A DNA stretch of 64,000 nucleotides. Origin: Escherichia coli (GTDB lineage: Bacteria; Pseudomonadota; Gammaproteobacteria; Enterobacterales; Enterobacteriaceae). Below, piece by piece: positions 25,599 to 48,276 of this stretch. A model generated the notes under the pieces. It made no database searches. It was not told the DNA's origin and saw nothing but the letters and a program-made list of their open reading frames with translations. How positions within the stretch are numbered: position 1 is the first letter of the stretch; every line of letters begins with the position of its first letter. The position numbers and the translations under genes were made by a program. Where the stretch lies: NCBI RefSeq assembly GCF_048403405.1, contig NZ_CP183129.1; one strand, 5' to 3'.

Positions 25599-26086
25599 TG
25601 AAATCGTTAATTATCGTTAATCCGGCTGACTGTATTGGCTGCCGTACTTGTGAAGTAGCCTGTGTGGTCGCTCACCCTTCAGAACAGGAGTTGAATGCCG
25701 ATGTCTTTTTACCCCGGCTGAAGGTACAGCGACTGGACAGCATCAGTGCGCCGGTGATGTGCCATCAGTGTGAAAACGCCCCTTGTGTTAGCGCTTGCCC
25801 CGTGGGGGCGCTGACGATGGGCGAGCAGGTGGTGCAGGCCAATTCTGCCCGTTGTATTGGCTGTCAGAGTTGCGTCAGTGCGTGCCCGTTTGGGATGATA
25901 ACCATTCAGTCGTTGCCGGGGGATACCCGGCAACAAATTGTGAAATGCGATCTCTGTGAACAGCGGGAAGAGGGGCCAGCCTGCGTTGAATCTTGCCCGA
26001 CACAGGCGCTGCAGTTGCTTACTGAAAGAGAACTCAGGCGAGTCCGCCAGCAGCGTATTGTTGCCAGCGGTAAGAATCCTCTGTGA
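25598..26086 (+). CDS. ygfS: 4Fe-4S ferredoxin-like electron-transfer subunit
   Basis: 162 aa with several CxxCxxCxxxCP motifs; the ATG overlaps the ygfT stop (TGATG). Confidence 0.88.
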
Positions 26087-30259: not shown

Positions 30260-30387
30260 CCCTTCACTCCTTTTAAAGTAAATTTGATCATCTGAATCAG
30301 TAAAATAAATTCCCACGAATTTGGGGCGCAGGACGCCTTGAGAACGGCTTATCTCATTTTCGCAGTCACTATTTAGTCATCGTCCAA

Positions 30388-30414
30388 ACAGAGAAACAGG
30401 CCGCCGAAGCGGCC
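30388..30414 (-). terminator. Rho-independent terminator after xdhD (end of the ygfK-ssnA-ygfM-xdhD transcription unit)
   Basis: GGCCGC-TTCG-GCGGCC hairpin on the minus strand followed by a T-rich tract (CTGTTTCTCTGTTTGG). Confidence 0.7.
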
Positions 30415-30423: not shown

Positions 30424-33294
30424 TTATATTTTTTCCAGCGCGGTGAGTATTTTCTCCGGTGTGAAATGCCATTCGCGTAACCAGATGCCGCATGCATCGT
30501 GAATTGCGGTAGCAATCGCCGGAGCTGCGCCATTTACACCGATTTCCGAGATCGATTTCGCCCCGAACGGGCCGACTTTATCGTCGCTCGGCACCAGCAC
30601 AGCGCGGAAATCACGCGGAATATCGCCTATTTTCGGTGCGCCGTAACTGCGTAAATCACGCGTTAACGGGTGACCTTCGGCGTCATAAATGATTTCTTCG
30701 CTCATACTGTGGCCGATTGCACGAAGGGTGGCACCGTAGATTTGTCCCAACGCTAACTCTGGATTGACCGGTGTACCGCAATCCAGCAAGGCGTAGAATT
30801 TATCCAGGCGGATTTCCCCCGTACGCGTGTTGACGGCAACTTCAGCAAAGTTTGCGCCATACGGGAAGGCGAAATCAGGCGTGATATAACTGCCAGTTCC
30901 CACCAGTGAACCAAAGCCGGTGCCGGTTTCGCCTTTATGGGCAATATCCCCGAAACTAACTTCGCCTTTCTTGCCGCGTACGACGCCCGGCGTTGCTAGT
31001 TGGACATCTGCCACTGGCTCACCCAACATTTGCGCACCGTGGAACAGAATTTTCTCCCGCAGATTTTCTGCTGCCAAGCGCGCCGCGTTACCCGAGAAGC
31101 AAGTACCGGACGAGGCATATGCGCCTTTATCAAACAACGCATGATCGGTATCACCGGAGATAACATGCACGTCCTGCGGTGGGCAGTGCAGCACTTCTGC
31201 TGCCAGTTTCGTCACCACCGTATCCAGACCAGTACCAATATCCGCACCGCCAGAATGAACGATAAAGGTACCGTCTGATTCCAGTTTGATCATGCAGTTA
31301 GCCTGATCGATATCTGGGATCCCTGATTTCTGCATGATAATGGCGACGCCACGACCGATGTGCCAGTCACCGTTTTGTGGTTTTGGTGAAGACCATTGGA
31401 TCATCTCGCGACCCTGACGCAGGATCTCTTCCAGTGCGCAGCTGGCGGCGGAAGGAACGGAGGTCGGCGCTTTACCTTCACCGATTGCACCGAGAATTTT
31501 CAGCTCTTGCCCTTCGTGTACCCGGTTACGTTCGATAATTTCCAGTTGGTCGATCTGTAACTGTTCAGCCAGTTCCGCTAATGCCATGGTGATAGCGAAG
31601 TTACCTTTCGGTGCGCCATAACCCTGATAAGCACCATTTGGGCAAATGTTGCTGTAGTAGGTGGTGACCTGGAAATCGACGTTATCGCACGGATATAACG
31701 GCAGCGACAGCGCCGGTCCGTTACACGGTACGGTGAGTGAGTGGTTGCCGTAAGGGCCAGTGTTGGCGCGGAAATCCATCTTCACTGCCGTCAGGCGACC
31801 ATCTTTTTTCGCTCCCAGTTTGACGGTGACTTTCGCGACGTGACGAGAGGTGTTAGCAATAAACTCTTCTTCACGGGTGTAGCGGAACAGTACCGGACGC
31901 CCGGTCACGCAGGTTGCCCAGGCGCACACTTCTTCCAGCAGGATGTCCTGTTTAGACCCAAAACCGCCGCCAACTCGCTCTTTAATGACATGAACTTTAT
32001 GTTGTTTCATGCCCACGAGGCGCGCGACCTGGCGGCGTAAGTGCCATGGTACTTGGGTGGAGGCGTGGATAACCAGACGATCGCCGTCCATACGGGTAAA
32101 GCAGATATGAGTTTCAGTCGGGCACTGCTGCGCCTGCGTTGAGTTATAGGTTCGCTCAATGATCACATCGGCATCGGCAAAGCCTTTGTCCATATCGCCA
32201 ATATGACCATGAATACTGGCGGCGATATTTTTACGGGGGCGAGAACCGATCGGGAAGTTGATGATCATATGCTCGCCGCGCTGGGCTGCATGGCTGTTAT
32301 CGTCTTCCAGAGTATCTGGCGCACCAGCAACATACACCACCGGTTCATCGTGCACGACAGGCGCATCTTCCGCCATTGCTTCGTCGATCGACATTACAGG
32401 TTTAAGCACTTCATATTCAACGTCGATGAGCTTCAGTGCTTCGAGCGCAATGTCTTCACTTTCTGCGACGACCGCAGCAACGCGATCGCCGACGTGACGC
32501 ATTTTCTTGCCGAACATACGGCGGTCAAGCGGTGACGGTTCCGGTGCGCTCTGACCGCCCGGGGTATAGTAGATATCCGGGCAATTCAGGTGAGTAATAA
32601 CGTGAACAACGCCCGGTAAGGCTTCAGCTTTGCTGACATCCAGATGAGTAATCAGTGCGTGAGCGTGTGGGCTACGTAACATTTTAATGACGCAGGCATC
32701 AGCCGTTACGCGGTCTTCAACATAGCAGGGTTTCGCCTGCACCATTTTCGCGGCATCAGTTTTAGGATAATGCTTACCAATGACTTCAAGGTCATCGCGG
32801 AAAGTCGGAGCGATATCAATGGTGGCCTGCGGATTATTTTTACGTGCAACCGCCAGTTCAATGACCTGATAGTATTGTTGCCAGCCTGCATCGCGGCTGA
32901 ACAAACCAGAAAGCGCGTCGTCGATCTCTTCGCGGGTCGGTGCGGCAATGCGATCGAGAAGATCGGTGATAATCAGAGCCGCAGCTGGATCGTTATAACC
33001 AGACTGCACCACGCCAACATCAACCATTGCCTGTTGAACCAGACTTAACTCGTTCCATTTGCCCAGAGACTCTGTGGTACGAATATCTGCCTTCTCTAAC
33101 TGTGCGGCGATAAGCAAGGACGCGTTAACGATATTACCGTTACAGATAATTGCGTCAGAACCGGCAAACCCGAATCCATCATCGCTGTTGCGTACAGAGT
33201 GCATTCCCATGTTAAACAACAGCTTTTGCACGTTTTCGCCTGGATTAACGGTTAGCTCCTGAGGCGCGCCATTTAAAGTAAAGTGGATGATCAT
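30424..33294 (-). CDS. xdhD: Molybdopterin-containing hydroxylase, fused 2Fe-2S plus molybdenum-binding subunit (xanthine dehydrogenase family; putative selenium-dependent)
   Basis: 956 aa; aldehyde-oxidase/xanthine-dehydrogenase-type large subunit with an N-terminal iron-sulfur domain. Confidence 0.88.
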   Translation of the reverse strand: MIIHFTLNGAPQELTVNPGENVQKLLFNMGMHSVRNSDDGFGFAGSDAIICNGNIVNASLLIAAQLEKADIRTTESLGKWNELSLVQQAMVDVGVVQSGYNDPAAALIITDLLDRIAAPTREEIDDALSGLFSRDAGWQQYYQVIELAVARKNNPQATIDIAPTFRDDLEVIGKHYPKTDAAKMVQAKPCYVEDRVTADACVIKMLRSPHAHALITHLDVSKAEALPGVVHVITHLNCPDIYYTPGGQSAPEPSPLDRRMFGKKMRHVGDRVAAVVAESEDIALEALKLIDVEYEVLKPVMSIDEAMAEDAPVVHDEPVVYVAGAPDTLEDDNSHAAQRGEHMIINFPIGSRPRKNIAASIHGHIGDMDKGFADADVIIERTYNSTQAQQCPTETHICFTRMDGDRLVIHASTQVPWHLRRQVARLVGMKQHKVHVIKERVGGGFGSKQDILLEEVCAWATCVTGRPVLFRYTREEEFIANTSRHVAKVTVKLGAKKDGRLTAVKMDFRANTGPYGNHSLTVPCNGPALSLPLYPCDNVDFQVTTYYSNICPNGAYQGYGAPKGNFAITMALAELAEQLQIDQLEIIERNRVHEGQELKILGAIGEGKAPTSVPSAASCALEEILRQGREMIQWSSPKPQNGDWHIGRGVAIIMQKSGIPDIDQANCMIKLESDGTFIVHSGGADIGTGLDTVVTKLAAEVLHCPPQDVHVISGDTDHALFDKGAYASSGTCFSGNAARLAAENLREKILFHGAQMLGEPVADVQLATPGVVRGKKGEVSFGDIAHKGETGTGFGSLVGTGSYITPDFAFPYGANFAEVAVNTRTGEIRLDKFYALLDCGTPVNPELALGQIYGATLRAIGHSMSEEIIYDAEGHPLTRDLRSYGAPKIGDIPRDFRAVLVPSDDKVGPFGAKSISEIGVNGAAPAIATAIHDACGIWLREWHFTPEKILTALEKI

Positions 33295-34070
33295 ACGGCT
33301 TCCTCCCCAGCCTGTTGGCAGTCGGCATACAGGTCGGCTACCAGAACTCCCGTGATATAGCGTTTATAGGCCACGCTGCCCCGCAAATCTTCCTGCGGGA
33401 AAATGGCGTTGGCGACAGCCTGTTCAAGTGCATTGCCTTCCAGATTTTGTTTTTCAACATCGTGCAGACGCAGGGCTTTACTGGCGACGCCATCCAGCGC
33501 AATTCGCATACCGTCGTGGTCTGTCATTGCAACGGCTGCCGTCACGACGGTTAAACCTGCCTGAGAACGGCTAATTTTGCGGGTCGCACAGGTGCGATAC
33601 GGATCTTTAATGATAATTTCGGTTAGCAGGCGATCGCATGGGCAGGCCAGGTACTCTTCGATTGACAGTGTTTCGCCATTGCCAAAAACCAGTTCAGCAT
33701 CCAGTGCCAGCAGGACGGGAAGCAGCACAGACTCTTCCTGCCGGGCGGCGATTTCACCACCAATGGTCGACTGATTACGAACATGGCGAGAGTAGACAAA
33801 GCCGAGGGCTTCACGCAGTGCTGCAGGAATAAATCGCGCATCACGCAGTGGCTGCAAGCGAGACATTGCGCCAATCCGCAGTGCACCGTTATCCCAGTCA
33901 ACCCAGTCCAGTTCCAGATCCTGTAAGGAAATGGCAATCTTTTTATCGGTACGGGTTGGTGTAGCGTTGAGTTTGCTGCCCCCGGCGAACCAGACGGCTT
34001 CATCCTTGTAGCGGCGCTTCAGTTCCAGCGCCTGTTCGACAGAGTCGGGCCTGAAAAATTGTTCAATCAT
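33291..34070 (-). CDS. ygfM: FAD-binding subunit (CO dehydrogenase medium-subunit-like) partner of XdhD
   Basis: 259 aa; its start overlaps the xdhD stop by 4 nt. Confidence 0.85.
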   Translation of the reverse strand: MIEQFFRPDSVEQALELKRRYKDEAVWFAGGSKLNATPTRTDKKIAISLQDLELDWVDWDNGALRIGAMSRLQPLRDARFIPAALREALGFVYSRHVRNQSTIGGEIAARQEESVLLPVLLALDAELVFGNGETLSIEEYLACPCDRLLTEIIIKDPYRTCATRKISRSQAGLTVVTAAVAMTDHDGMRIALDGVASKALRLHDVEKQNLEGNALEQAVANAIFPQEDLRGSVAYKRYITGVLVADLYADCQQAGEEAV

Positions 34071-34120
34071 CTTCTTTCCTTATTTAACCCTCTTCCCTAC
34101 GGGAAGAGGGTATTTGTCAT

Positions 34121-35449
34121 TTATGCCAGCGCATCCATCCGACGCCACATACTGGCAGCGGCTTTTCTGGCTTGCGCATAAATGGAATCGCAATCGAAGT
34201 TAAACTGACGGTCTTCATAGACCATCACGCCATTGACCATCACGCTATGAACGCTGCCTGAGCCCATACCGAAAGCGATATGCCCGGCGATATTGTCTGC
34301 CAGCAGCGGTGTCGGCGAGTTGTAATCGCAAATGGTTAAATCGGCTTTGTAACCGGCTTCCAGAAGGCCAAATTTCGCGCCAAAGTTGCGGCTCATCAGT
34401 TCGTTGCCGTTAGCCAGTGCTTTGGCAAAACTGTCAGGCCACAGCGGACCACCCGCATCGCGATGTTTAAAGAAGGCAAATTTCATCTCTTCAAACATGT
34501 CCGAACCAATGCCGTCAGTTCCCAACGCCAGATTGCGGATGTCGCTAAGGTGATGGTTGTAGCCGACATGGTTGTTCATGTTTGAACGGGCGTTATGCAC
34601 CAGGAACGCATCGCGCTGATTGAGTAGGGCGATGTCATCTTTCGACAAGTACAGCCCATGAGCGACCAGCGTTTTGCTGTCGATGAGATCGAATTGCGCC
34701 AGTCGTGCCAGCAGGTCTTTGCCGTACCAGTGGTGACTGTAGGAAACGTCATAAAGGTCTTCCGCAGCGTGAATGTGCAAACCACGACCTGTGGCTTTCA
34801 CGGCTTCACGCAGCATCTCCAGACCGGCATCCGGCACGGTAAACGGCGCGTGAGCGCCGATATGTGCTTCCACCAGATACGGTTCGGTTGCTGCTTTCTT
34901 CGCCTCATCAATCTGACGGGCGAAGCGGATGTTTTCTTCTACACCTTCCTGCAACTCTTTGATACCGTTGTTACGGTCAGTAGTTTCAAAACAGGTCATC
35001 GCGCGCAGGCCAACTTTTAAAAATGCGTTGCGCAATGTGGAGAGCGACCCGTCGATATACGCCGGAGAGGCATGGTGATCGATAACCGATGTACATCCGC
35101 CCTTAATCGCTTCCAGGGAACAAATCAGTCCGCTGTAATAGAGCGACTCTTCATCAAGGGCGCGATCGAGTCGCCACCAGAGATTTTTCAGCGTTGAGAT
35201 GAAATCCGGGCAGGGGGCGATGTTTGCCATAATTCCGCGGGACAGCCCCGAGTAAAAATGGTTGTGCGAGCAGACAATTCCTGGCATCACAATCCGACCA
35301 TGCATCTCTTTGTAGCTGGCATCGGGGTAGCGTTGCGTCAGGGCATCGCCGATAGCGACAATCACATCATTTTCGATGGCGATATCAACGCCTTCCTGCA
35401 CTTTCGCCGGGTGTAACTGCACTGCGGTGACATTCTTCAGAATCAACAT
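34121..35449 (-). CDS. ssnA: Amidohydrolase-family putative aminohydrolase SsnA (chlorohydrolase / nucleobase-deaminase-like)
   Basis: 442 aa with an HxH metal motif (PGIVCSHNHFYSG). Confidence 0.88.
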   Translation of the reverse strand: MLILKNVTAVQLHPAKVQEGVDIAIENDVIVAIGDALTQRYPDASYKEMHGRIVMPGIVCSHNHFYSGLSRGIMANIAPCPDFISTLKNLWWRLDRALDEESLYYSGLICSLEAIKGGCTSVIDHHASPAYIDGSLSTLRNAFLKVGLRAMTCFETTDRNNGIKELQEGVEENIRFARQIDEAKKAATEPYLVEAHIGAHAPFTVPDAGLEMLREAVKATGRGLHIHAAEDLYDVSYSHHWYGKDLLARLAQFDLIDSKTLVAHGLYLSKDDIALLNQRDAFLVHNARSNMNNHVGYNHHLSDIRNLALGTDGIGSDMFEEMKFAFFKHRDAGGPLWPDSFAKALANGNELMSRNFGAKFGLLEAGYKADLTICDYNSPTPLLADNIAGHIAFGMGSGSVHSVMVNGVMVYEDRQFNFDCDSIYAQARKAAASMWRRMDALA

Positions 35450-35451
35450 GA

Positions 35452-38400
35452 TTACACCTCCACGCGGCCCAGCAGATAATGATGATGCTGGTGGACATGG
35501 CTAATAATGCGGCACATATCGTTCAGCTCCGGTGGTACGTTGTTGAACTGACCTTCGCTGTCGATGTTTAACACCCAGCTTTGGTTATTCAGACGTACTC
35601 GTACCCGGCAATCTTCCACAAGGAAGCCAGGGTTGCTGCTGTTATCAAAGTCTTGCGACAGGCTGAAGACGGTGATTTTGTCTTTGTACGGTTTACCGTT
35701 CCACGGGCAGAACTGAGCGCAGTTGCCGCATTCGTTACAGTAAGCGTCGAGGTGCAGCGTCTGGAAACGGTTCTGGAAGCCAGGGACCGCAATGGATACG
35801 TTGGCGCGGTTCGGGCAGACATCCACACACTTGCTGCAAACGTAGTTACATTCAAGGCAGCGTGCGGCTTCCTGGGCGACAAACGCGTCACGATCGTCGC
35901 TATCCACCAGGGTGATAGAGATATCGCCTTTGCGTTGATAGATTTCCGCCGGATTGACGTTGTTCCAGTATTTATCGTTCTGGTGGGAACGGATGTTTTC
36001 CCGACTAAGGATGGCATCGGTCGCCCGACGCGCGGTTCCGACAGCAGCGACAATGGAGGATGGTCCGCGCTGTACGTCGCCGATCATAAAGACGTCAGTC
36101 AGACGAGTTTCGCCATTATGGTCGACGTCTGGCCAGCCGTTTTTGTCCAGCGGCACGCCCATCGCATTCAGGGCTTCAGTATCCTGCTGTTCACCAATGG
36201 CGGTGATCAGGCTGTCTACATGCAGTGTTACTGTTTCGTTGGTTTCAACCGGACGGCGACGACCTTTCTCATCAGGTTCGCCAAGCGACATAACGCGCAA
36301 GGTTAAGGTGCCATCAGCATCGAAACGTTCCGGATTATTCAGGAAACGGAACTCCACGCCGTCGTGCAACGCTTCTTCATACTCTTCGCGCCATGCTGGC
36401 ATCTCTTGCAGTGAACGACGGTAAACGACCGTTGCTTTTTCTACGCCTGGAACGCGTAACGCCGCACGAGCGCAGTCCATTGCCGTGTTACCCGCCCCGA
36501 CAACGACCACATGTTTGCCCAGCTTGAGCGCTGTGCCCTTGTTGTATTCACGCAGGAAGGGGAGTGATTTCCAGACATTTTGGTTGTCGCCCGCCAGTTT
36601 CACACCGCTATTTTTATCAGTGCCGGTGGCAATCAGAACATAGTGGAAGCCCTGATTTTTTAACTGTTCAACGGTCAGATCGGGTGAGCAGCCATACTCA
36701 AATTTCACGCCGTGAGCGGCAACAAAATCGATATCGTGCTGAATTAACTCTGCAGGAATACGGAACTGAGGAATGATATTTTTCACCACGCCGCCCGCAT
36801 TGGCTTCGCGTTCAAACAGCGTAACCGGATGGCCCGCTCTGGCAAGGAAGTAACCTGCTGCCAGACCCGCCGGACCTGCACCAATCACGGCAACCGGATG
36901 GCGTGAACCAGAACCGGCTGGTTTGTGCCAGCGTTGCTTATATTCATCCCAACCTTTTTCCAGCGCGACTTTTTTCAGTTCGCGGATATTCAGCGCACTG
37001 TCGTAATCCAGGCGGGTACAGTTGTATTGGCACTGGTGATCGCAAATATGACCGGTAATGGCGGGCAGGGCGTTGCGTTGGTAGATGAGTTCCAGCGCGT
37101 CAGCATAGCGGTGTTCGCCAAGCAAACGGATGTATTCCGGAATATCTTGCTTGATAGCGCAGGCAGTAACACAGGGGGCAACGTAGCAGTCGGTCAGCGG
37201 CAGGTCTTCTGCCACTTCAATACGCTCTTCTGGTTTCCAGTGTTTTTGAGTGTATTCCATGGTTAACGCGTCTGCTGACAGTTTGTTCAGTCGTTCGACG
37301 TCAACATGGTCAAGCCCCCAGGCGTCGGAGCCTTCCAGCTCGCGCATGCAGGCACTTAAGCGCAGATAGCCGCCAGGTTTCAGCAGGTCGGTTGCCATAG
37401 TAATAGGGCGAATACCAGTATCAAAAATATCGCGGATAGTCAGCTGACTGGCACCACCGGAATAAGAAATGGGCAGTTTGCCGTCAAAGGCGCGAGAGAG
37501 AACTGCTGCAACATTGATGGAGAGCGGGAACAGCGCACGGCCTGACATATACATCTCTTCACCAGGCAGTGCGCCTTTATTGTTGATGGTGCCGAGAGTG
37601 TTAGTCAGTTTTACGCCAAAGCCGAGTGATTTTTCTTTTGCCAGTGCCATCAGGCGTTCCAGCATTTCCAGCGCTTGCGTCAGCTTGAGGTCGTGATCAA
37701 ATGACTCTTCTTTTAAGCCTATGTAACCGAAACCGCAGACATCGAGGATCTCACGAACACGCGCGTACCCCAGTAAGGTCGGGTTGAGTTTCACAAAGGT
37801 ATTGAGCCCTTTTTCTTCCAGCATGTAGCGGCAAATGGCTTCGATTTCATGCGGAGGGCAGCCGTGCATGGTGGAGAGGGTAACGCCTTGTACCATGCTG
37901 GTGGGGATGCGTGCCGGTAAGGCCTGCAAGCATTCGCGTTTTTCCTGTAAGCCGTGGCGGGCTAAAAATGCGTCATCCTGGAGTAGTTTATTCAGCGTAT
38001 CGCGATATTGCGCGAATTTCGGATGGTCAGATGCGTCCATCATATTGTCGATGAACTGTTGCATCGGCGGTTGCTTAATACCTTCGAGGTTGTAACCGAC
38101 GCTCATATTAAAGATGAACGATTTACCGGAATCAGAAGGCTGGAACATCGCTTCGAGAAGGTGCAGGGCAAACCAGGCTTTGAGGTATTCATCCCAGGCT
38201 TTAAGCAGGGTAAATTCGGTGGACCATTCGGTGTTAAAGCACTCGTCTTCGGCATCGATACAGGGCTTTTCCAGCTCCAGGCGGTCAAGAATTTGGACGG
38301 TTTTTAGTTCGATGAAGCGTCCGCCAGTCAGCCAGGAAGTGACAATATTTTGCGCGAGCTGCGTGTGCGGGCCAGCGGCGGGGCCGACGGGAGTGGCACA

Positions 38401-38550
38401 GGTTTCACCGAAGACGCTAACAGTTTTACCTTTTACGGGTGAGTAAAACTGTTGCTCGGGAATACCAAAGATTGAGCGTTGTTGTTGGTATTCATCAAAT
38501 ATGCGCGTCAAAAGTTCCTCAAACGGAATGGGACGCATAATATCCCCCAT
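35452..38550 (-). CDS. ygfK: Large Fe-S flavoprotein oxidoreductase YgfK (glutamate-synthase/dihydropyrimidine-dehydrogenase-like; annotated elsewhere as putative selenate reductase subunit)
   Basis: 1032 aa; [18 protein letters not shown] dinucleotide fold and a C-terminal 4Fe-4S motif (CLECNYVCSKCVDVCP). Confidence 0.88.
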   Translation of the reverse strand: MGDIMRPIPFEELLTRIFDEYQQQRSIFGIPEQQFYSPVKGKTVSVFGETCATPVGPAAGPHTQLAQNIVTSWLTGGRFIELKTVQILDRLELEKPCIDAEDECFNTEWSTEFTLLKAWDEYLKAWFALHLLEAMFQPSDSGKSFIFNMSVGYNLEGIKQPPMQQFIDNMMDASDHPKFAQYRDTLNKLLQDDAFLARHGLQEKRECLQALPARIPTSMVQGVTLSTMHGCPPHEIEAICRYMLEEKGLNTFVKLNPTLLGYARVREILDVCGFGYIGLKEESFDHDLKLTQALEMLERLMALAKEKSLGFGVKLTNTLGTINNKGALPGEEMYMSGRALFPLSINVAAVLSRAFDGKLPISYSGGASQLTIRDIFDTGIRPITMATDLLKPGGYLRLSACMRELEGSDAWGLDHVDVERLNKLSADALTMEYTQKHWKPEERIEVAEDLPLTDCYVAPCVTACAIKQDIPEYIRLLGEHRYADALELIYQRNALPAITGHICDHQCQYNCTRLDYDSALNIRELKKVALEKGWDEYKQRWHKPAGSGSRHPVAVIGAGPAGLAAGYFLARAGHPVTLFEREANAGGVVKNIIPQFRIPAELIQHDIDFVAAHGVKFEYGCSPDLTVEQLKNQGFHYVLIATGTDKNSGVKLAGDNQNVWKSLPFLREYNKGTALKLGKHVVVVGAGNTAMDCARAALRVPGVEKATVVYRRSLQEMPAWREEYEEALHDGVEFRFLNNPERFDADGTLTLRVMSLGEPDEKGRRRPVETNETVTLHVDSLITAIGEQQDTEALNAMGVPLDKNGWPDVDHNGETRLTDVFMIGDVQRGPSSIVAAVGTARRATDAILSRENIRSHQNDKYWNNVNPAEIYQRKGDISITLVDSDDRDAFVAQEAARCLECNYVCSKCVDVCPNRANVSIAVPGFQNRFQTLHLDAYCNECGNCAQFCPWNGKPYKDKITVFSLSQDFDNSSNPGFLVEDCRVRVRLNNQSWVLNIDSEGQFNNVPPELNDMCRIISHVHQHHHYLLGRVEV

Positions 38551-38871
38551 AACCCTCTCCTTAGCTTATACAGATATCATTGAGTGACCGGTGTTGAGAA
38601 ATCCGGTGGTTTAGGGGGATAGAGCAACAATCGCACCACTCTTGCCAGGTTTGGCGGGAAATATAAAAAAATGTGAGGCGGCTCGAAACTTAGGGGCTTT
38701 TTGTGAAAGAACTCACAGGTGCCAAATGAGAATTAAAATCACTCCTGAAAATTATTATTGCCAGCCCATTTATCACTTTTTCTCTTTTCTCAAAATCAGT
38801 GATTCCTTATCATTATGATAAAGAGAACTGGAAGGGTTAAATATTTGAACGCAATCGTTTAACTACGTTTT

Positions 38872-39450
38872 CTAAATTTCAGCATACCTTTTTTTCGCTG
38901 TAATAAAGTCGTCCGGAGTATCAATATCTAAAATTATTTCTGCATTTTCTATTTCGACGGAATAATGATCTCCCATAAGGAGTGCCTGACGCATATTGGT
39001 GATATTGGGACGCTGGATTGCCTGCATCAGGCATGGCTTTGACACTAAAATCGGATGGCCGGGAATGCCATTATGGAGTGGCAGTATTGCGCCATCATTT
39101 CGTAACGACCAGATTTTTCTAAAAATATCGATGGTGAGGGTAGGCATGTCACCGTGGGTGAGAAAACAATATTCTGTTTTTACCGCGGGTACTGCGGCCT
39201 TTACTGATGTGAGTAAACCCTGCGCATAATCTGGGTTGTGAATAATAGTGATATTGCTCTGGTTCGCATAACGTTCGTGCAGTTCATTACCACGATAGCC
39301 GGTGACTAAAATAATTCGGCTACAAAACTGCAACGCATTTTTGATACTTGTATCAAGAATTGTTCCCTGTTGCCAGGGTAACATCATTTTCCATTGCCCC
39401 ATTCTTGATGATAATCCGGCAGCGGTAATTATACAGTCGATGGCTGACAT
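38872..39450 (-). CDS. mocA: Molybdenum cofactor cytidylyltransferase (MobA-like NTP transferase)
   Basis: 192 aa, MSAIDCIITAAGLSSRMGQWKMMLPW... Confidence 0.88.
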   Translation of the reverse strand: MSAIDCIITAAGLSSRMGQWKMMLPWQQGTILDTSIKNALQFCSRIILVTGYRGNELHERYANQSNITIIHNPDYAQGLLTSVKAAVPAVKTEYCFLTHGDMPTLTIDIFRKIWSLRNDGAILPLHNGIPGHPILVSKPCLMQAIQRPNITNMRQALLMGDHYSVEIENAEIILDIDTPDDFITAKKRYAEI

Positions 39451-42036: not shown

Positions 42037-42969
42037 TTACTGACAAATCACCGTTCCGGTTTTGCCTTCAATCCCTTCTTTCGCTTTGCTCAATACGGTA
42101 ATCAGTGCTTCACGACCTGCGCGAGAGCGAGCAAACGAGGCGGCAGCTTCCACTTTAGGCAGCATAGAACCTTTCGCAAAATGACCTTCTTCGATAAAGC
42201 GTTCAGCATCACTTAATGACAGGCGATCGAGCCACTGTTCATTCTCTTTACCGAAGTTAATGGCCACTTTTTCTACCGCAGTCAGAATGATCAGCATATC
42301 GGCATCAATCATTTCTGCTAAACGGGCGCTGGCCCAGTCTTTATCGATAACCGCACTGGCACCACGCAGGTGGTTACCTTCACGAATAACAGGGATACCA
42401 CCACCGCCAACGGTGATCACCACCTGGCCTGCATCTACCAACGCTTTAACCGTTTCTTTTTCAATGATATCAACCGGTTTTGGCGAGGCAACAACACGGC
42501 GATAGCCGCGACCAGCATCTTCTTTCAGAGTGTAACCCTGTTTTGTCAGTTGCTCTGCTTCTTGCTCGGTAAAGAACGAACCGATCGGCTTGGTCGGGTT
42601 GAGGAATGCCGGATCGTTAGCGTCGACTTCGACCTGGGTAACCAGCGTTGCTACAGGTTTATTAATGCCACGAGAAAGCAGTTCTTCTCTTAAGGCATTT
42701 TGTAGATCGTAACCAATATAACCCTGGCTTAAGGCAACACAGACAGACATCGGCAGCATTGGCGAGTGCGCTTCAGTTTTTGCGGCAGCTTCAAAGGCCT
42801 GGTTAATCATGCCCACCTGCGGCCCGTTACCATGAGTGACGATAACTTCATGTCCTTGGGCAATTAAATCAACAATTGCCTGAGAAGTAATTTTTACCGC
42901 TTTCATTTGTCCGGCCAGGTCATCGCCCAGCGCATTCCCGCCCAGGGCGAGAACAATTTTCTTACTCAT
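42037..42969 (-). CDS. yqeA: Carbamate kinase-like protein
   Basis: 310 aa amino-acid-kinase fold, MSKKIVLALGGNALGDD... Confidence 0.88.
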   Translation of the reverse strand: MSKKIVLALGGNALGDDLAGQMKAVKITSQAIVDLIAQGHEVIVTHGNGPQVGMINQAFEAAAKTEAHSPMLPMSVCVALSQGYIGYDLQNALREELLSRGINKPVATLVTQVEVDANDPAFLNPTKPIGSFFTEQEAEQLTKQGYTLKEDAGRGYRRVVASPKPVDIIEKETVKALVDAGQVVITVGGGGIPVIREGNHLRGASAVIDKDWASARLAEMIDADMLIILTAVEKVAINFGKENEQWLDRLSLSDAERFIEEGHFAKGSMLPKVEAAASFARSRAGREALITVLSKAKEGIEGKTGTVICQ

Positions 42970-43016
42970 TTTTCCTCACTCATCATTCTTGATTGTGTAT
43001 AGATCCCTGGCAGTGG

Positions 43017-44402
43017 TTAGAGCACGGGAGGGACAAACGGTTTGCGTCGCAGGAATCGACCTCGCCCGGCTTTGCCTGTAAAGCTGCCGTCACAGAAAAT
43101 CGTTTCACCACGGGATAAAGTTCTGACAATCGCGCCCTGACAGGTAAAACCCTCCCATGGCGAATAGTCAGCGTTGTCGTGGAGATGGCGATGCTGAATT
43201 TGTTGGCTCTGACGTGGGTCGATAATCACCACGTCGCCATCGGAACCGGGCGCTAATAATCCTTTTTGCGGCCACAGGCCAAACAGCCTGGCGGGCATCG
43301 CGCTGGTTAATTCAACAAAACGTTCCGGTGTTATACGTCCCGTCATAACGCCACTGGAAAACAGTAACTGCATGCGGTTTTCCACACCGGGTAAGCCATT
43401 TGGGCAGCGACTGAAATCGCCTTTAGAAATTTGCAGGCGTTGAGCCATCGAGAAGGTGCAGTGATCGGTTGCCACCACGTCAATCGCACCATCGCTGATG
43501 CCACACCACAGTTTGTCCTGCTCGCGTACGTTACGCAGCGGTGGGCTAAGAATGAACTTAATGCCATCTTCTGTATCGTAACTGCGTTCGTCCAACAGGA
43601 GATATTGTGGGCAGGTTTCAACCCAGACTGGCTGGTGATTCGCACGGGCAAGACGCAGATAATCCAGACCTAAGCCGTTAGACAGGTGCACGATATAGAG
43701 CGGGGCGTTACCGGCAATTTGTGCCAGGTTAATCATGCGGGCGATGGCTTCCGCTTCGCATTCCAGAGGGCGACTCAAGGCGTGATAGCGCGGCGCGGTT
43801 AACCCTGCGGCGATAAACTCCGCCCGCTTGCTGGCGATAGCTGCATCATTTTCCGGGTGCACGGTGGTCAGCGCGCCGGACTCATGCAAGCGGCGTAACG
43901 CCTGCAAAACCTCGTCATCGTTGAGTTTGTATTGATAGGTTAAATAGAGTTTAAAACTGCTCAGTCCTTCTTCGACCATCATCGGAATTTCGTCGAGGAT
44001 GGCGTGATTAATGTGCTGGATCACACCATGAAAGCTGTAGTCGATGACCGCCTTATGGGCGGCATAGCCACGATAAACCTCCAGTTGATGGCGTAACCGA
44101 CAGCCGTTTGGGCCAAATCCCATATGGTCAATAATGGTTGTTGTACCGCCACACGCAGCTGCGCGGGTACCGGTAAAAAAATCATCACAACTGCGCGCGA
44201 TGCCGACATCAATATTGAAATGCGTATGGACATCCACGCCGCCAGGGAAAACGTAACAGCCAGTGGCATCAATTTCTTCATACGGGAGCTGCGGCGAAAT
44301 ATTGTTGCCCAACTGGCGAACAATCCCGCTTTCAATCAGCAAATCCTGTTTGGCTTGTCCATCTGCGTTAACGACAGTGCCGTTTTTGATCAATACGCGC
44401 AT
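43017..44402 (-). CDS. hyuA: D-phenylhydantoinase / dihydropyrimidinase-family cyclic amidohydrolase
   Basis: Track ORF trimmed by 4 codons to MRVLIKNGTVVNADGQ...; metal-binding motif GGVDVHTHF; 461 aa. Confidence 0.88.
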   Translation of the reverse strand: MRVLIKNGTVVNADGQAKQDLLIESGIVRQLGNNISPQLPYEEIDATGCYVFPGGVDVHTHFNIDVGIARSCDDFFTGTRAAACGGTTTIIDHMGFGPNGCRLRHQLEVYRGYAAHKAVIDYSFHGVIQHINHAILDEIPMMVEEGLSSFKLYLTYQYKLNDDEVLQALRRLHESGALTTVHPENDAAIASKRAEFIAAGLTAPRYHALSRPLECEAEAIARMINLAQIAGNAPLYIVHLSNGLGLDYLRLARANHQPVWVETCPQYLLLDERSYDTEDGIKFILSPPLRNVREQDKLWCGISDGAIDVVATDHCTFSMAQRLQISKGDFSRCPNGLPGVENRMQLLFSSGVMTGRITPERFVELTSAMPARLFGLWPQKGLLAPGSDGDVVIIDPRQSQQIQHRHLHDNADYSPWEGFTCQGAIVRTLSRGETIFCDGSFTGKAGRGRFLRRKPFVPPVL

Positions 44403-44454
44403 AGCAAACTCCAAAAACCCTCCGGCGAACCGGAGGGGAATAAGTGAAGAGTAA

Positions 44455-45666
44455 TTATTCGGTTGCCAGCCAGCTTAACGGGATTGCCGCGTACATCGCG
44501 GCACAGGTCACCAGGTGAGATTTCCAGGTTTTTTCGTTAGGTGCATGCGCTTCAGGTTCTTTACCTGGGCCAAAGCCGATCACCGGAATGCCGTGACGGC
44601 CCATGATAGATACGCCGTTAGTTGAGAAGGTCCACTTATCAACAACCGGCGCTTTGCCAAACAGCCCTTCGTAGGCATTCACCAGTGCTTTAACGGTGAA
44701 GTGATCTTCTTCCACTTTCCAGGTCGGGAAGTAGCATTCGGTTGGGTATACCAGGCCAGTCCAGGACGGACGGTCGTAGTTGTACATAGAAACAACCGCG
44801 TTAGCTTTCTGTACCGCAGGCAGGGCGCGGATTTCATCCAGCGCGCCTTCCCAGGTTTCGCCCCAGGTCAGACGGCGGTCAATAGAGACGGCGCAGCTAT
44901 CTGCTACTGCGCAACGGCTTGGGGATGTGAAGAAGATTTCAGAAACGGTGAGGGTGCCTTTGCCGAGGAATTCGTCATAACCCAGACGTTGGGAGAGTTC
45001 TTGTAATTCGCCAAGAATCGGACCCATTTTGAAAATGGCGTTGTCACCGCGTTCTGGTGCAGAACCGTGGCAGCTAACACCCTGAACATCAATACGAATT
45101 TCCATACGACCGCGCTGACCACGGTATACCTGGCAGTCGGTTGGTTCGGTACTGACCACAAATTCCGGGCGAATGCCGGATTGTTCAATAATGTACTGCC
45201 AGCACAGGCCGTCGCAGTCTTCTTCCTGCACCGTACCGGTAACCAGCAGGGTATATTCATCTTCCAGACCGAGGTCTTTAATGATTTTACCGGCATAAAC
45301 CATAGATGCCATGCCGCCTTCCTGGTCGGAAGTACCGCGACCACCGATCAGCTCATCAGTTTCCATGCCTTCGTACGGATCGAAGTCCCAGTTTTTGATG
45401 TTGCCAATGCCGACGGTATCAATATGAGCGTCCATTGCCACCAGACGCGGGCCGTGGCCGATATAACCGAGAACGTTGCCCATCGGGTCGATTTCAACTT
45501 TATCGAAGCCGACTTTTTCCATCTCTTCTTTAATACGATGTACTACGCGTTTCTCGTCGCAGCTTTCACTGGGAATAGCAACCATGTCGCGCAGGAAGCG
45601 AGTCATATCCGCCTGGTAATCTTTTGCTTTTTCAAGAATCAGTTTGAATGGAATATTCTTAGCCAT
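44455..45666 (-). CDS. ygeY: Peptidase M20 family amidohydrolase (ArgE/DapE/acylase-like)
   Basis: 403 aa, [35 protein letters not shown]... Confidence 0.88.
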
Positions 45667-45723
45667 TATTTTTCTCCAGATTTTTTACTCCCCGTTTTGC
45701 AGGGAGCAGTTCCAATAGGGTGA

Positions 45724-46920
45724 TTAAGGTGCTACAGCGTGTTTGCCTTCCCAGACAACTTCGCGGTAGTGCTTCACGTCGGTGTCGCCTTCAGTGCTGA
45801 TAACCAGCACCACGGCATCTTTGTTCAGCGCCAGTTTTTCCATCAGGCTTTGACGTTGTGGGTGATAATGAACCGCTGCGAGAACGCCCAAACCGACAGC
45901 GCCGGATTCGCCGGAGATGATGCGCGGGTCGTTGCCGTACGGATTACCCAGCACGCGCATACCTAATGCGGCAACGCTGTCCTGGCAGGAGATGAATTGG
46001 GTGGCGCAGTTACGTAGGATTTCCCAGCCCAGCGGGTTAGGTTCGCCACAGGCCAGGCCTGCCATGATGGTGGCCATATCACCGCCAACGTTGACGATGT
46101 CGCCTTTGACGCCAGAGCGATAAATACAGTCAGCTTTGTCAGGTTCAACAATAATGCTGTGCAGATTTTGCGGGCTGTAGACGTCGACCAGATAACCCAG
46201 CACACCACCAGCCATTGCACCGACACCGGCTTGCAGCAGAACGTGCGTCGGGGTTACGCCCATTTCACGCATTTGCTCGACGGCTTCATCTGCCAGTGTT
46301 GCGTAGCCTTGCATGATCCAGGTTGGGATTTTGGTGTAACCTTCCCAGGCGGTATCTTGCACCACTTCCCAGCCGTGCTGCTGCGCGTGTTGCATGGTCA
46401 GGCGAACGGTATCGTCATAGTTCATATCCGTGACGATGCACTCGGCACCGAGGTTCAGAATGGCGTCAACGCGTTCCTGAGCAGAACCTTTCGGCATGTA
46501 AATCACCGCATTCTGTCCGAGTTGCTGTGCTGCCCACGCCACACCGCGCCCGTGGTTGCCGTCGGTGGTGGTCGCGAAGGTCATTTTTTCGCCGATGGCA
46601 TTTTTCAGATGCTCAAATGACAGCGTTTCGATATCAAGATGATATTTTTCACACAATAATTGAGCGATGGCGTACGCACCGCCGAGCATTTTGAAGGCGT
46701 TCAGACCGAATCGTTTTGATTCGTCTTTGACGAGAATTTTCTTCACACCAAAAAGGTTTGCGAGATCGTCCAGCGCACAAAGCGGTGTTGGGCGATAACC
46801 AGCAATTTTCTGATGGAACTGGCGCGCCAGTTTGGCCTGGCTTTGCGAAAAGAGCGGTGATGTTTCGCCGTTGAAAAATTTGTTATCGGCGATATCAATC
46901 TTCAATGAGAAAACGGACAT
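45724..46920 (-). CDS. dpaL: Diaminopropionate ammonia-lyase (PLP-dependent, fold type II)
   Basis: 398 aa; also known as ygeX. Confidence 0.88.
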   Translation of the reverse strand: MSVFSLKIDIADNKFFNGETSPLFSQSQAKLARQFHQKIAGYRPTPLCALDDLANLFGVKKILVKDESKRFGLNAFKMLGGAYAIAQLLCEKYHLDIETLSFEHLKNAIGEKMTFATTTDGNHGRGVAWAAQQLGQNAVIYMPKGSAQERVDAILNLGAECIVTDMNYDDTVRLTMQHAQQHGWEVVQDTAWEGYTKIPTWIMQGYATLADEAVEQMREMGVTPTHVLLQAGVGAMAGGVLGYLVDVYSPQNLHSIIVEPDKADCIYRSGVKGDIVNVGGDMATIMAGLACGEPNPLGWEILRNCATQFISCQDSVAALGMRVLGNPYGNDPRIISGESGAVGLGVLAAVHYHPQRQSLMEKLALNKDAVVLVISTEGDTDVKHYREVVWEGKHAVAP

Positions 46921-46977
46921 ATCCTATCCTTTTGGCCTCTGGAAATAGAGGGCCGACCAGCTGATCGGCCCGAGGGG

Positions 46978-48168
46978 TTATTTCACGCGTTCTTGCGCTT
47001 CTTTCAGCAGTTGCTCGAGCAGTGCACCTGGTTTGGCGTATTTACGGGACAGGATCATCGCGGCGATGATATAAGGCTTCCAGCTGGCTTCTTTGTAGGT
47101 CGCGATACGGTATTTTTCGAATACGCCTTCAGTCACTTCACCTTCTTTGCAGGATACGCCGCTGATATCAGCTGGCAGGCAGTGCATGTACAGGGCTTCG
47201 CCATCACGGGTCAGTTCCATCATCTCTTCAGTACAATGCCAGTCTTTGTGTTGCGCGTTCTGTGCCAGACACTGTTTTTCCAGTGCTTTTAAGCCTTCGT
47301 GATCGTTCGCACGCAGCAATTCAGTACGCTCTTCCATCACTTTGTAAGGTGCCCATGACTTCGGATAAACGATGTCTGCGTCTTTGAAGGCTTCTTCCAT
47401 GCTGGTGACCTGACGGAAGCTACCGCCGGAGGCTTTAGCATTGTTTTTAGCGACTTCAACGACATCCGGGATCAGGTCGTAGCCTTCCGGATGGGCCAGG
47501 GTGACATCCATACCGAAGCGAGTCATCAGACCGATGATGCCTTGTGGTACAGATAGCGGTTTGCCATAGCTTGGGGAGTAGGCCCAGGTCATGGCGATTT
47601 TTTTACCTTTCAGGTTTTCCAGTGAACCAAAGTGTTCACGTAACCATGCCAGGTCAGCCATTGACTGAGTCGGGTGGTCAATATCGCATTGCAGGTTCAC
47701 TAAAGCCGGACGTTGCGGCAGCACACCCTGCTTGTAACCGTCATCAAGTGCAGCGCCAACTTCACGCATATAGGCGTTGCCTGCGCCCAGATACATATCG
47801 TCGCGAATACCAATAGCGTCGGCGCAGAAGGAGATCATATTGGCGGTTTCACGCACGGTTTCGCCGTGAGCGATTTGTGATTTGCCTTCATCGAGATCTT
47901 GCTGTGCAAGGCCGAGCAGGTTAAGCGCGGAAGCATAAGAGAAGCGGGTACGAGTGGAGTTGTCGCGGAATACGGAAATACCTAATCCACTATTAAAGAC
48001 TTTGGTTGAGATGTTTTCAGCACGCAGTGCTTTTAATGCTGCGGCAACGTCCAGTACTTGTTTCAGTTCATCTGGCGTCTGTTCCCACGTTAACAAAAAA
48101 TCTTTCTCGTGAAGGTGAGAGGTCAGCGAATTGATATCCTTAATCAGCTCATTAACAGTTTTCATCAT
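46978..48168 (-). CDS. ygeW: Carbamoyltransferase YgeW (aspartate/ornithine carbamoyltransferase family)
   Basis: 396 aa with STRTR and HCLP signature motifs (DNSTRTRFSYASA; YMHCLPADISG). Confidence 0.88.
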   Translation of the reverse strand: MMKTVNELIKDINSLTSHLHEKDFLLTWEQTPDELKQVLDVAAALKALRAENISTKVFNSGLGISVFRDNSTRTRFSYASALNLLGLAQQDLDEGKSQIAHGETVRETANMISFCADAIGIRDDMYLGAGNAYMREVGAALDDGYKQGVLPQRPALVNLQCDIDHPTQSMADLAWLREHFGSLENLKGKKIAMTWAYSPSYGKPLSVPQGIIGLMTRFGMDVTLAHPEGYDLIPDVVEVAKNNAKASGGSFRQVTSMEEAFKDADIVYPKSWAPYKVMEERTELLRANDHEGLKALEKQCLAQNAQHKDWHCTEEMMELTRDGEALYMHCLPADISGVSCKEGEVTEGVFEKYRIATYKEASWKPYIIAAMILSRKYAKPGALLEQLLKEAQERVK

Positions 48169-48257: not shown

Positions 48258-48276
48258 TAACAATAAGTGTGCCAGA
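48258..48276 (-). promoter_or_regulatory. Candidate sigma54 (-24/-12) promoter reading toward ygeW
   Basis: Minus strand reads CTGGCACACTTATTGTT: the -24 TGGCAC element and the correct spacing to a -12 TTGT (consensus TTGC), about 90 nt upstream of the ygeW start and next to the divergent sigma54 activator gene ygeV. One mismatch in the -12 GC. Confidence 0.4.

Follow-up and report, generated by a model that had tools for sequence, protein, structure and literature searches.

The ygfK-ssnA-ygfM-xdhD locus of Escherichia coli: enzymes of anaerobic urate breakdown and a molybdenum subunit with replaced iron-sulfur ligands

Do the four adjacent genes ygfK, ssnA, ygfM, and xdhD of Escherichia coli encode the parts of one unusual molybdoenzyme, or do they encode several enzymes that act in turn? 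These genes occupy positions 30,424 to 38,550 of a 64,000-nucleotide stretch of E. coli DNA (NCBI RefSeq assembly GCF_048403405.1, contig NZ_CP183129.1), hereafter called the window. The original prediction, made from the sequence, described a distinct hydroxylase with a fused Mo/2Fe-2S subunit (XdhD), a separate FAD subunit (YgfM), its own electron-transfer partner (YgfK), and a coupled hydrolytic step (SsnA). We are highly confident that the operon encodes two separate enzyme systems, which in sequence catalyze the three opening reactions of anaerobic, reductive uric acid degradation (also called the 2,8-dioxopurine or “yanthine” pathway), with the electron input to XdhD as the uncertain part of this reading. 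A distinct Mo enzyme with its own FAD subunit and a coupled hydrolysis are thereby retained from the prediction, whereas the assignment of YgfK as the electron partner of XdhD and the hydroxylase direction are not. The reactions of XdhD-YgfM, YgfK, and SsnA were established in experiments by others; the analysis described here supplies the layout of the genes, the folds of the domains, and the linkage seen in different phyla.

Reactions and enzymes of the operon

The function of this operon is already known. The gene cluster was flagged by comparative genomics in 2008 (PMC2276186) and by transcriptomics and genetics in 2022-23, and two studies from 2025 established that its products catalyze the three initial reactions by which uric acid is degraded without oxygen (PMC12507026; bioRxiv 10.1101/2025.04.24.650524). 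Tagged E. coli XdhD was found to co-purify with a protein of ~30 kDa, taken to be YgfM, and this preparation converted urate to 2,8-dioxopurine when supplied with NADH (Li et al., Life Metab 2025, PMC12507026). A mixture of YgfK and SsnA with NAD(P)H then converted yanthine to ureidomethyl-hydantoin, and neither enzyme alone gave product. Cells lacking xdhD accumulate urate and form no yanthine, and it is deletion of xdhA, not of xdhD, that blocks xanthine oxidation (PMC12507026). The system examined by Li et al. comprises the same genes from the same species, with proteins that differ from those of the window at strain level only and with no functional difference.

The same pathway was found in both Clostridium sporogenes and E. 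coli by Liu et al. (bioRxiv 10.1101/2025.04.24.650524), who named YgfK an NADPH:2,8-dioxopurine oxidoreductase (DOPOR) and reported that selenate is neither required nor stimulatory. In their hands, YgfK alone with NADPH converts 2,8-dioxopurine to a compound called UA-3, whose structure is described as unstable and provisional. Their clostridial Mo enzyme, called XdhAC or DOPDH, depends on selenium, has no FAD domain, does not use NAD(P)H, and was reconstituted with methyl viologen and dithionite. Thus, the C. sporogenes system shares with that of E. coli the YgfK and SsnA families and the interconversion of urate and 2,8-dioxopurine, but its Mo enzyme is unlike XdhD-YgfM in lacking an FAD subunit, in not using NAD(P)H, and in its dependence on selenium. 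The length reported for the clostridial DOPDH and the account of its domains make it a probable member of the TIGR03311 type discussed below.

In the scheme that we favor, XdhD would use its Mo-pterin center, and YgfM its FAD as the entry point for NADH, to take the 6-oxo group off urate and yield 2,8-dioxopurine. The physiological role of XdhD is accordingly that of a dehydroxylase working in the reductive direction. YgfK would then reduce the pyrimidine ring of 2,8-dioxopurine with electrons that NAD(P)H gives to FAD and that [4Fe-4S] clusters relay to an FMN in its N-terminal barrel, a wiring suggested by its predicted domains. The unstable reduced ring would be hydrolyzed by SsnA to a ureido-hydantoin, which would pull the unfavorable reduction forward. 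Products would feed HyuA, YgeW, YgeY, YgeX, and YqeA, which are encoded a few kilobases away, and the adjacent genes mocA, yqeB, and yqeC would supply a special Mo cofactor. Because these three genes adjoin the operon, the cofactor of XdhD is probably the cytosine-dinucleotide form, and it is probably activated with selenium.

The 8127-bp stretch that carries the four genes matches several complete genomes at 100% identity, and 5168 of 5426 complete E. coli genomes carry at least 80% of it at 95% identity or more. Given this conservation, and given family scores that are far above curated cut-offs (YgfK scores 1780.1 on TIGR03315 versus a cut-off of 835.3, and XdhD scores 2117 on TIGR03313 versus 1101.9; for SsnA and YgfM, see Table 1), ygfK, ssnA, ygfM, and xdhD are real genes and not chance open reading frames (ORFs). 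Searches for structures found none solved for XdhD, YgfM, SsnA, or YgfK themselves.

YgfK has Pfam matches only at residues 453-950 (Fer4_20, 2.8e-16; Pyr_redox_2, 1.9e-42; and weak matches to Fer4_7 and Fer4_9), and phmmer matched it to NfnA, GltD, and residues 63-499 of pig dihydropyrimidine dehydrogenase (DPD). A Pfam search with residues 1-445, alone and for 23 homologues individually, gave no match. When the predicted model of full-length YgfK (pLDDT 94.4, pTM 0.92) was used as a Foldseek query, only the GltD/Nfn/DPD module was recovered, with target-normalized TM-scores of ~0.78 to NfnI and GltD. For this reason, residues 1-445 were modeled separately (pLDDT 91.5), and the N-terminal domain is predicted to be a catalytic barrel of YgfK's own, of the type found in dihydroorotate dehydrogenase (DHODH) and DPD. 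Cysteine C231, which lies in the motif STMHGCPP just past the fourth strand (residues 220-226), is at least 90% conserved and is a candidate counterpart of DPD C671, the active-site acid/base on the loop past barrel strand 4. Conserved glycine-rich stretches are also present at the end of the barrel.

Homologues of YgfK were collected at 30-57% identity, and 69 full-length sequences were aligned. Two sets of cysteines are invariant in this alignment: six at residues 455-511 (C455, C460, C464, C503, C507, and C511) and nine at residues 898-948 (C898, C901, C905, C908, C912-P, C938, C941, C944, and C948). Their arrangement fits several [4Fe-4S] clusters. The models therefore portray YgfK as a complete DPD-like reductase in which the domain order is permuted, since the barrel (residues 1-445) precedes the Fer4_20/FAD/NADPH module (residues 453-850). 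By this view YgfK is a relative of DPD and not its orthologue, and a structural-modeling remark on YgfK by Li et al. agrees with a DPD-like reductase (PMC12507026). The two proteins share the GltD-like FAD/NADPH module, the Fe-S domains, and the DHODH-like FMN barrel (pig DPD, PDB 1H7W/1GT8; bacterial PydA/PreTA), whereas the barrel of YgfK is N-terminal instead of following the FAD/NADPH domains, matches no Pfam family, and serves a purine substrate.

The presence of its own catalytic barrel argues against YgfK being a mere electron-transfer subunit. Likewise, YgfK turns over 2,8-dioxopurine without the Mo enzyme, and XdhD-YgfM with NADH suffices for urate, and so the proposal that YgfK serves as the redox partner of XdhD finds no backing here. 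Some homologues that we call “short” YgfK (L033:10001-11674, L037:10001-11653, L038:10001-11704, and L039:10001-11848, from Blautia sp. MSJ-19, an Elusimicrobiota metagenome-assembled genome [MAG], and others; locus labels refer to the genome scan described below) retain the N-terminal barrel and the C-terminal ferredoxin domain and lack the Fer4_20/FAD/NAD(P)H module at approximately residues 455-883. These forms presumably are ferredoxin driven.

The nearest relatives of SsnA with solved structures are hydrolases of the deaminase/chlorohydrolase type (8-oxoguanine, MTA/SAH, and atrazine-type enzymes). Its motifs SHNH (H62 and H64, forming HxH), HIHAAE (HxxE), and GTDG (Asp) are intact in the translation. 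We take HIHAAE to hold the strand-5 histidine with HxxE and GTDG to hold the strand-8 aspartate, which would be metal-binding or catalytic residues. YgfK and SsnA follow the same logic as DPD and dihydropyrimidinase (PydB), in which ring reduction is followed by hydrolytic opening, although PydB belongs to the dihydropyrimidinase/hydantoinase branch and SsnA to the deaminase/chlorohydrolase branch. Hydrolysis by SsnA is indeed coupled, as had been predicted, but the coupling is to YgfK and not to XdhD.

The XdhD family and its iron-sulfur domain

XdhD carries both Mo-cofactor domains and the a/b hammerhead of the xanthine oxidase family. Its Pfam matches are Ald_Xan_dh_C (1.9e-30), MoCoBD_1 (3.8e-72), MoCoBD_2 (6.4e-68), and Fer2_2 (7e-12), and phmmer recovered structures of 4-hydroxybenzoyl-CoA reductase (4-HBCR), MOP, CoxL, and xanthine dehydrogenase (XDH). 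In a BLASTP comparison with E. coli XdhA, the XdhD motif VGGGFGSKQD pairs with VGGGFGNKQD, and the C-terminal GAKSISE pairs with GHKSLGE. The glutamate of SISE is presumably the equivalent of bovine E1261, the catalytic residue near the C-terminus.

Regardless of this shared architecture, the Mo enzyme is distinct from ordinary xanthine dehydrogenase, as the original prediction held. XdhD is only 30% identical to the XdhA encoded in the same window and has insertions of 33 and 11 residues relative to it, the shorter of which holds E606. Its scores are below the XdhA equivalog cut-offs (516.6 versus 780 for NF043082 and 493.4 versus 916 for NF007426) and also below the cut-off for TIGR03311, named “selenium-dependent xanthine dehydrogenase” (298.5 versus 830.45). 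In a small neighbor-joining tree, XdhD has a long branch and is the sister of XdhA-type subunits (29-34% identity); it does not join the TIGR03311 group. XdhD is thus outside the ordinary XDH clade, and it is genomically linked to both YgfK and YgfM. The linkage to YgfK reflects consecutive pathway steps.

YgfM matches the Pfam families FAD_binding_5 (PF00941, 1.2e-19) and CO_deh_flav_C (5e-4), and homologues at 28-31% identity preserve its FAD motifs, AGGS and TIGGEI. Similarity to XdhB is marginal (E = 0.001). Among the loci compared, YgfM is always encoded immediately upstream of XdhD-type genes, and this placement, the FAD-binding domain, and the ~30 kDa protein that co-purifies with XdhD uphold its assignment as a separate FAD subunit. 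We also considered an Fe-S cluster in YgfM like that of the FAD subunit of 4-hydroxybenzoyl-CoA reductase (C143-P-C145...C161). This candidate was rejected because the cysteines are absent from distant homologues, and none of the four cysteines of YgfM is conserved.

The predicted fusion of a Mo subunit with a 2Fe-2S subunit requires qualification. Residues 1-165 of XdhD are homologous end to end with XdhC and with the small subunits of nicotinate dehydrogenase (NDH), so the fused domain is present. However, all eight cluster-ligand cysteines have been replaced. XdhC has the usual eight ligands, whereas residues 1-200 of XdhD include a single cysteine. In the alignment, C44/C49/C52/C64 of XdhC correspond to D/A/D/S in XdhD, and C103/C106/C140/C142 correspond to S/N/S/D. 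With none of the eight [2Fe-2S] ligands kept, XdhD does not have the two-cluster signature of the family.

Ligand replacement was checked in the E. coli protein and in eight further members of the XdhD family, which together represent four phyla. The same replacements occur in XdhD of Edwardsiella, Hafnia, Paludibacterium, and Photobacterium; homologues encoded in spirochaete, clostridial, and Bacteroidetes genomes, which are 51-54% identical, have them too. Among 117 XdhD homologues, the first 170 residues contain zero to three cysteines, and CxxC occurs in none. Furthermore, the motifs that stand in place of the ligands (SDDGxGFAGSD, VVQSxYNxPA, and LSGxFxRDxGY) are themselves conserved in the family. 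By comparison, all of the TIGR03311-type neighbors of YgfK retain all eight Fe-S cysteines.

In MAGs of Bipolaricaulota and Thermotoga (L028:3-3444 and L024:14-1047), an unfused Mo subunit that is closest to XdhD (41%) is encoded near YgfK-SsnA. This subunit is paired with separate canonical FAD and Fe-S subunits, and the Fe-S subunit retains the full set of eight cysteines. (Entries for L021 and L026 were disregarded in this comparison as ORF-trimming artifacts.) The unfused layout may be the ancestral arrangement of the XdhD-YgfM type. Because these 41%-identical relatives keep an eight-cysteine small subunit, the loss of cysteines seems to accompany the fused TIGR03313 clade.

Since XdhD lacks all eight [2Fe-2S] ligand cysteines and YgfM has no conserved cysteine, the canonical electron path from FAD through two Fe-S clusters to Mo would not be available. 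Judged from these sequences, XdhD-YgfM would combine Mo and FAD with no Fe-S chain between them. We tentatively suggest, as a possibility that we hold at somewhat less than even confidence, that XdhD-YgfM is a natural member of the xanthine oxidase family that kept its Mo center and FAD subunit and lost both [2Fe-2S] clusters, and that this loss extends through the whole TIGR03313 clade. The paper of Li et al. does not mention Fe-S clusters or missing ligands in XdhD (PMC12507026), and full-text literature searches found no paper that discusses the missing Fe-S ligands of XdhD.

Several known systems provide useful comparisons. Canonical XDH (E. coli XdhABC; Rhodobacter capsulatus XDH, PDB 1JRO) has the same Mo-cofactor domains, a/b hammerhead, and separate FAD subunit, and Li et al. 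modeled XdhD-YgfM on the R. capsulatus enzyme (PMC12507026). XdhD is unlike it in having 30% identity, a fused and ligand-less Fe-S domain, and a partner (YgfM) that barely resembles XdhB, and it differs as well in its reductive physiological direction and its regiochemistry (C6 of urate). The small and FAD subunits of selenium-dependent nicotinate dehydrogenase (PDB 3HRD) match the XdhD N-terminal domain and YgfM, respectively, and yqeB and yqeC adjoin the operon. Unlike XdhD, however, NDH binds two [2Fe-2S] clusters, and a need for selenium has been shown for the C. sporogenes enzyme only.

Linkage across phyla and competing readings

One genome per species was scanned with the YgfK alignment, which yielded 34 loci that encode the YgfK barrel and 42 control loci with GltD-like proteins only. 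The 34 loci represent at least 10 phyla (Proteobacteria, Firmicutes, Actinobacteria, Spirochaetes, Bacteroidetes, Acidobacteria, Thermotogae, Bipolaricaulota, Elusimicrobia, and others). Both sets were then searched by tblastn with 16 proteins of the E. coli cluster. SsnA is encoded in 25 of the 34 YgfK loci, and in 22 of the 34 it is directly adjacent and on the same strand, while a Mo-hydroxylase large subunit is found in 20 of the 34. When only loci flanked by 5 kb or more on each side are counted, SsnA and the Mo-hydroxylase are each present in 13 of 15. The corresponding control values are 1 of 42 for SsnA and 2 of 42 for the Mo-hydroxylase, and the lone control with SsnA proved to be a truncated YgfK. 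YgfK and SsnA are thus a conserved core pair across phyla, which matches their biochemical coupling. Homologues of the genes of the ygeW-yqeA operon also cluster with YgfK across phyla, and homologues of yqeB and yqeC are beside YgfK in L016, L033, and L035. The contig of one distant YgfK homologue is short, and no pathway neighbors were seen on it.

The Mo enzymes near YgfK are of two kinds. Those of the TIGR03313 kind are 51-54% identical to XdhD and have a YgfM homologue immediately 5' (L004, L016, and L017). Those of the TIGR03311 kind, found in Firmicutes and Actinobacteria, are fused Fe-S and Mo proteins of ~860 residues that have no FAD subunit and are 24-29% identical to XdhD (L006, L009, L015, L019, L033, L035, and others); the YgfK-adjacent enzymes in L006, L009, L015, and L019 score 1128-1331 on TIGR03311. 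A corollary of the cluster-less reading of XdhD is that urate 6-dehydroxylation would have been recruited twice, once in the TIGR03313 lineage with YgfM and once in the TIGR03311 lineage without FAD.

Enterobacter sp. Bisph1 (L003:10001-22905) has ygfK-ssnA genes that are 76-77% identical to those of E. coli and are not followed by ygfM-xdhD. Instead, an opposite-strand GltD-like gene comes next, and then a mocA-like gene and separate xdhC-, xdhB-, and xdhA-like genes (29-41% identity). The Fe-S subunit at this locus has all eight cysteines.

Could XdhD, YgfM, and YgfK nonetheless form one multisubunit hydroxylase, with YgfK as the electron module for the Mo site and SsnA hydrolyzing the hydroxylated product? 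XdhD has no Fe-S ligands, and YgfK offers FAD as well as a site for NAD(P)H and several Fe-S motifs. The genes share a co-directional operon, a Mo enzyme is linked to YgfK in the 20 loci noted above, and electrons were supplied to the FAD-less clostridial enzyme by methyl viologen and dithionite in its published reconstitution. These points must be set against the DHODH/DPD-type barrel of YgfK, its activity on 2,8-dioxopurine without the Mo enzyme, and the finding that XdhD-YgfM and NADH are enough for the first step, with a partner of ~30 kDa and none of 115 kDa in the purified material. Moreover, YgfK also adjoins Mo enzymes that have all eight Fe-S cysteines, “short” YgfK proteins without the FAD/NAD(P)H module still occur beside SsnA and a Mo enzyme (L033, L037, and L038), and Enterobacter sp. 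Bisph1 has ygfK-ssnA without xdhD-ygfM. We leave this arrangement a small probability because clusters are missing in XdhD. Database names raise another option, namely that YgfK-YgfM-XdhD (YgfN) is a selenate reductase: RefSeq and JGI use “putative selenate reductase subunit,” and the TIGRFAM names trace to the 2008 comparative genomics study (PMC2276186). This is very unlikely, since selenate is not required and does not stimulate YgfK (bioRxiv 10.1101/2025.04.24.650524), the conserved neighbors are purine-catabolic genes and not genes for selenium respiration, and defined purine substrates and products have been demonstrated. Selenate reduction, if it takes place, would be a secondary activity.

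Names such as “putative hypoxanthine oxidase XdhD,” which are used in several genomes, imply yet another role, in which XdhD is a redundant paralogue of XdhABC that oxidizes hypoxanthine or xanthine. Its position in the small tree as sister to XdhA-type subunits, away from the TIGR03311 type, speaks in favor of such a role. However, XdhD scores below the XdhA equivalog cut-offs and has insertions near the active site, E606 included; furthermore, the xdhA and xdhD deletion phenotypes described above and the formation of 2,8-dioxopurine as the product of XdhD (PMC12507026) both contradict it. We therefore give this role almost no credence. A purine “transhydroxylase” activity of XdhD, in which xanthine would be the reductant at the Mo site and no electron chain would be needed, was also considered and is disfavored because deletion of xdhA blocks xanthine consumption.

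Several points also weigh against our preferred reading of two enzyme systems acting in consecutive steps. The two 2025 papers disagree on the nucleotide (one has NADH or NAD(P)H, the other exclusively NADPH) and on YgfK alone, which was inactive in Li et al. and active (to UA-3) in the preprint. Dependence on selenium was shown for a clostridial enzyme that appears to be of a different family (TIGR03311), and not for E. coli XdhD. The XdhD family has none of the eight ligands and YgfM has no conserved cysteine, and turnover of XdhD-YgfM driven by NADH may be slow or may need a further component. In this regard, the published XdhD assay used 10 uM enzyme and end-point liquid chromatography-mass spectrometry, which is compatible with slow transfer (PMC12507026). 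With the function of the operon known, the residual novelty is in the XdhD family without Fe-S ligands and in the use of two nonorthologous Mo enzymes for the same step.

Locus layout and relevance to urate disposal

The original description of the locus was largely correct. Gene coordinates and common direction (Table 1) agree with it, and so do the two junctions, which we read directly: ygfK and ssnA are separated by 2 nt (TAA-tc-ATG), and ygfM and xdhD overlap by 4 nt (ATGA). Both junctions fit co-translation within the ygfK/ssnA and ygfM/xdhD pairs, and a GGAGG sequence precedes the ssnA start inside the 3' end of ygfK. The canonical xdhABC genes are indeed present separately in the same window.

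Beyond the fused 2Fe-2S domain, the claim that needs amending is that of a terminator only after xdhD. There is a terminator-like hairpin 3' of the xdhD stop codon, in which a 6-bp G+C stem with a UUCG loop (GGCCGC-UUCG-GCGGCC, 30414..30399) is followed by a U-rich tail (folding energy of -13.3 kcal/mol, z = -3.7). However, the 50-nt spacer between ssnA and ygfM includes a stronger 11-bp stem-loop, which lacks a U tract on the transcribed strand and occurs once in the window. The evidence for terminators is limited to the positions and folding energies of these two hairpins, as a consensus terminator scan of the region gave 12 matches where 10.2 were expected, which is no enrichment over chance or shuffled sequences. 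A divergent class of the ssnA-ygfM spacer, with 80-90% identity, is present in 1200 E. coli genomes. In strain DS566-2, one sequenced member of this class, two compensatory double changes (A-U to C-G and C-G to U-A) and one G-U pair maintain the stem, which suggests selection on structure. The hairpin is perhaps an element for mRNA processing or stability that sets the ratio of ygfK-ssnA to ygfM-xdhD.

Table 1. Positions in the window of the operon genes, their domains, candidate regulatory elements, and neighboring genes
Feature	Position	Strand	Basis or remarks
ygfK	38550..35452	minus	1032 aa; ORF read, RefSeq annotation concurs
ygfK residues 1-445	37216..38550	minus	Predicted DHODH/DPD-type FMN TIM-barrel, putative substrate-reducing domain
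ygfK residues 446-860	35971..37215	minus	Fe-S domain (Fer4_20) and GltD/NfnB/DPD-like FAD and NAD(P)H module
ygfK residues 861-1032	35452..35970	minus	C-terminal ferredoxin-type di-cluster domain and tail
ssnA	35449..34121	minus	442 aa; ORF read, RefSeq concurs; amidohydrolase proposed to open the reduced pyrimidine ring; TIGR03314 737.2 versus cut-off 455.5
ygfM	34070..33291	minus	259 aa; ORF read, RefSeq concurs; FAD-binding subunit paired with XdhD; TIGR03312 487.3 versus cut-off 241.5
xdhD	33294..30424	minus	956 aa; ORF read, RefSeq concurs
xdhD residues 1-165	32800..33294	minus	Relic of double [2Fe-2S] domain without cysteine ligands; homology and ligand alignment
xdhD residues 166-956	30424..32799	minus	a/b-hammerhead and molybdenum-cofactor domains, urate 6-dehydroxylating site; Pfam and XdhA alignment
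Terminator-like hairpin and U-rich tail after xdhD	30385..30414	minus	Sequence and folding energy
Intercistronic 11-bp stem-loop, ssnA-ygfM spacer	34087..34111	minus	-19.9 kcal/mol, z = -4.2
Candidate sigma-54 promoter TGGTGCGATTGTTGC	38624..38638	minus	GG-N10-GC spacing fits -24/-12 consensus; ~75-90 nt 5' of ygfK ATG
mocA	38872-39450	minus	RefSeq: MCD cytidylyltransferase; ~0.3 kb upstream of operon; intact ORF
yqeC	39553-40323	plus	RefSeq: selenium-dependent Mo-cofactor biosynthesis protein; intact ORF
yqeB	40371-41996	plus	RefSeq: selenium-dependent Mo-cofactor biosynthesis protein; intact ORF
Downstream pathway operon ygeW, ygeX (dpaL), ygeY, hyuA, yqeA (arcC)	42037..48165	minus	Annotation; intact translations
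Sigma-54-like -24/-12 element TGGCACACTTATTGT	48258-48273	minus	Upstream of ygeW
xdhABC	50462-54124		Separate locus
Sigma-54-like -24/-12 element TGGCGTAAATCTTGC	54181-54195	minus	Upstream of xdhA

A promoter consensus scan showed no enrichment over shuffled sequences, and sigma-54-type motifs are likewise not enriched in the window (12 found versus 13.8 expected). A candidate sigma-54 promoter is nevertheless present upstream of ygfK, where the block GATTGTTGCTCT is kept in Enterobacter sp. Bisph1 (L003). An earlier candidate at 38647..38633 was replaced by this overlapping one (38638..38624), which is the one conserved in that species. Similar elements are located upstream of ygeW and xdhA, and they flank ygeV, a sigma-54 activator gene encoded in the window. 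Binding of the sigma-54 holoenzyme has been reported in the ygeV/ygeW spacer in a paper from which ygfK is absent. We treat control of ygfK by sigma-54 and YgeV as a lead only.

Among the other neighbors, yqeC and yqeB are 1-3.5 kb upstream of the operon according to the RefSeq annotation. Approximately 4 kb past xdhD, the genes ygfT and ygfS (23679-26086, plus strand) encode a GltD-like Fe-S flavoprotein and a 4Fe-4S di-cluster protein that are annotated as “formate-dependent uric acid utilization.” These proteins are candidates for external redox partners of the pathway. The flavodoxin FldB is encoded some 16 kb away from the operon, at approximately 14234-14755. The xdhD-xanQ spacer is 165 nt long and contains the terminator-like hairpin. 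The mechanically called ORF for xanQ (28859-30316, minus strand) has a GTG start and 485 aa, whereas the RefSeq protein has 466 aa and starts at 30259.

If XdhD-YgfM indeed functions without [2Fe-2S] clusters, one of three alternatives must apply. Its Mo center would receive electrons by a noncanonical route (for instance, through FAD that has re-docked, through another type of bound cofactor, or by transfer over a very long distance), or the enzyme would depend in vivo on an external redox partner, such as YgfK, YgfS/YgfT, or AegA in the formate-dependent route, or the FAD subunit would have another role.

Approximately one-third of human urate is excreted into the intestine, and this pathway is how gut anaerobes dispose of it. 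The pathway is being engineered into probiotics against hyperuricemia and gout, and therefore the genes need to be annotated correctly; in RefSeq, YgfK is still called a “putative selenate reductase subunit,” and XdhD is labeled a “Mo/Fe-S-binding subunit.” If E. coli XdhD transfers electrons poorly or needs a partner, then its reaction may limit the rate of an engineered pathway and be its least portable step. The Fe-S-containing TIGR03311 type may then be a better or a worse choice, depending on the electron donor available in the host.

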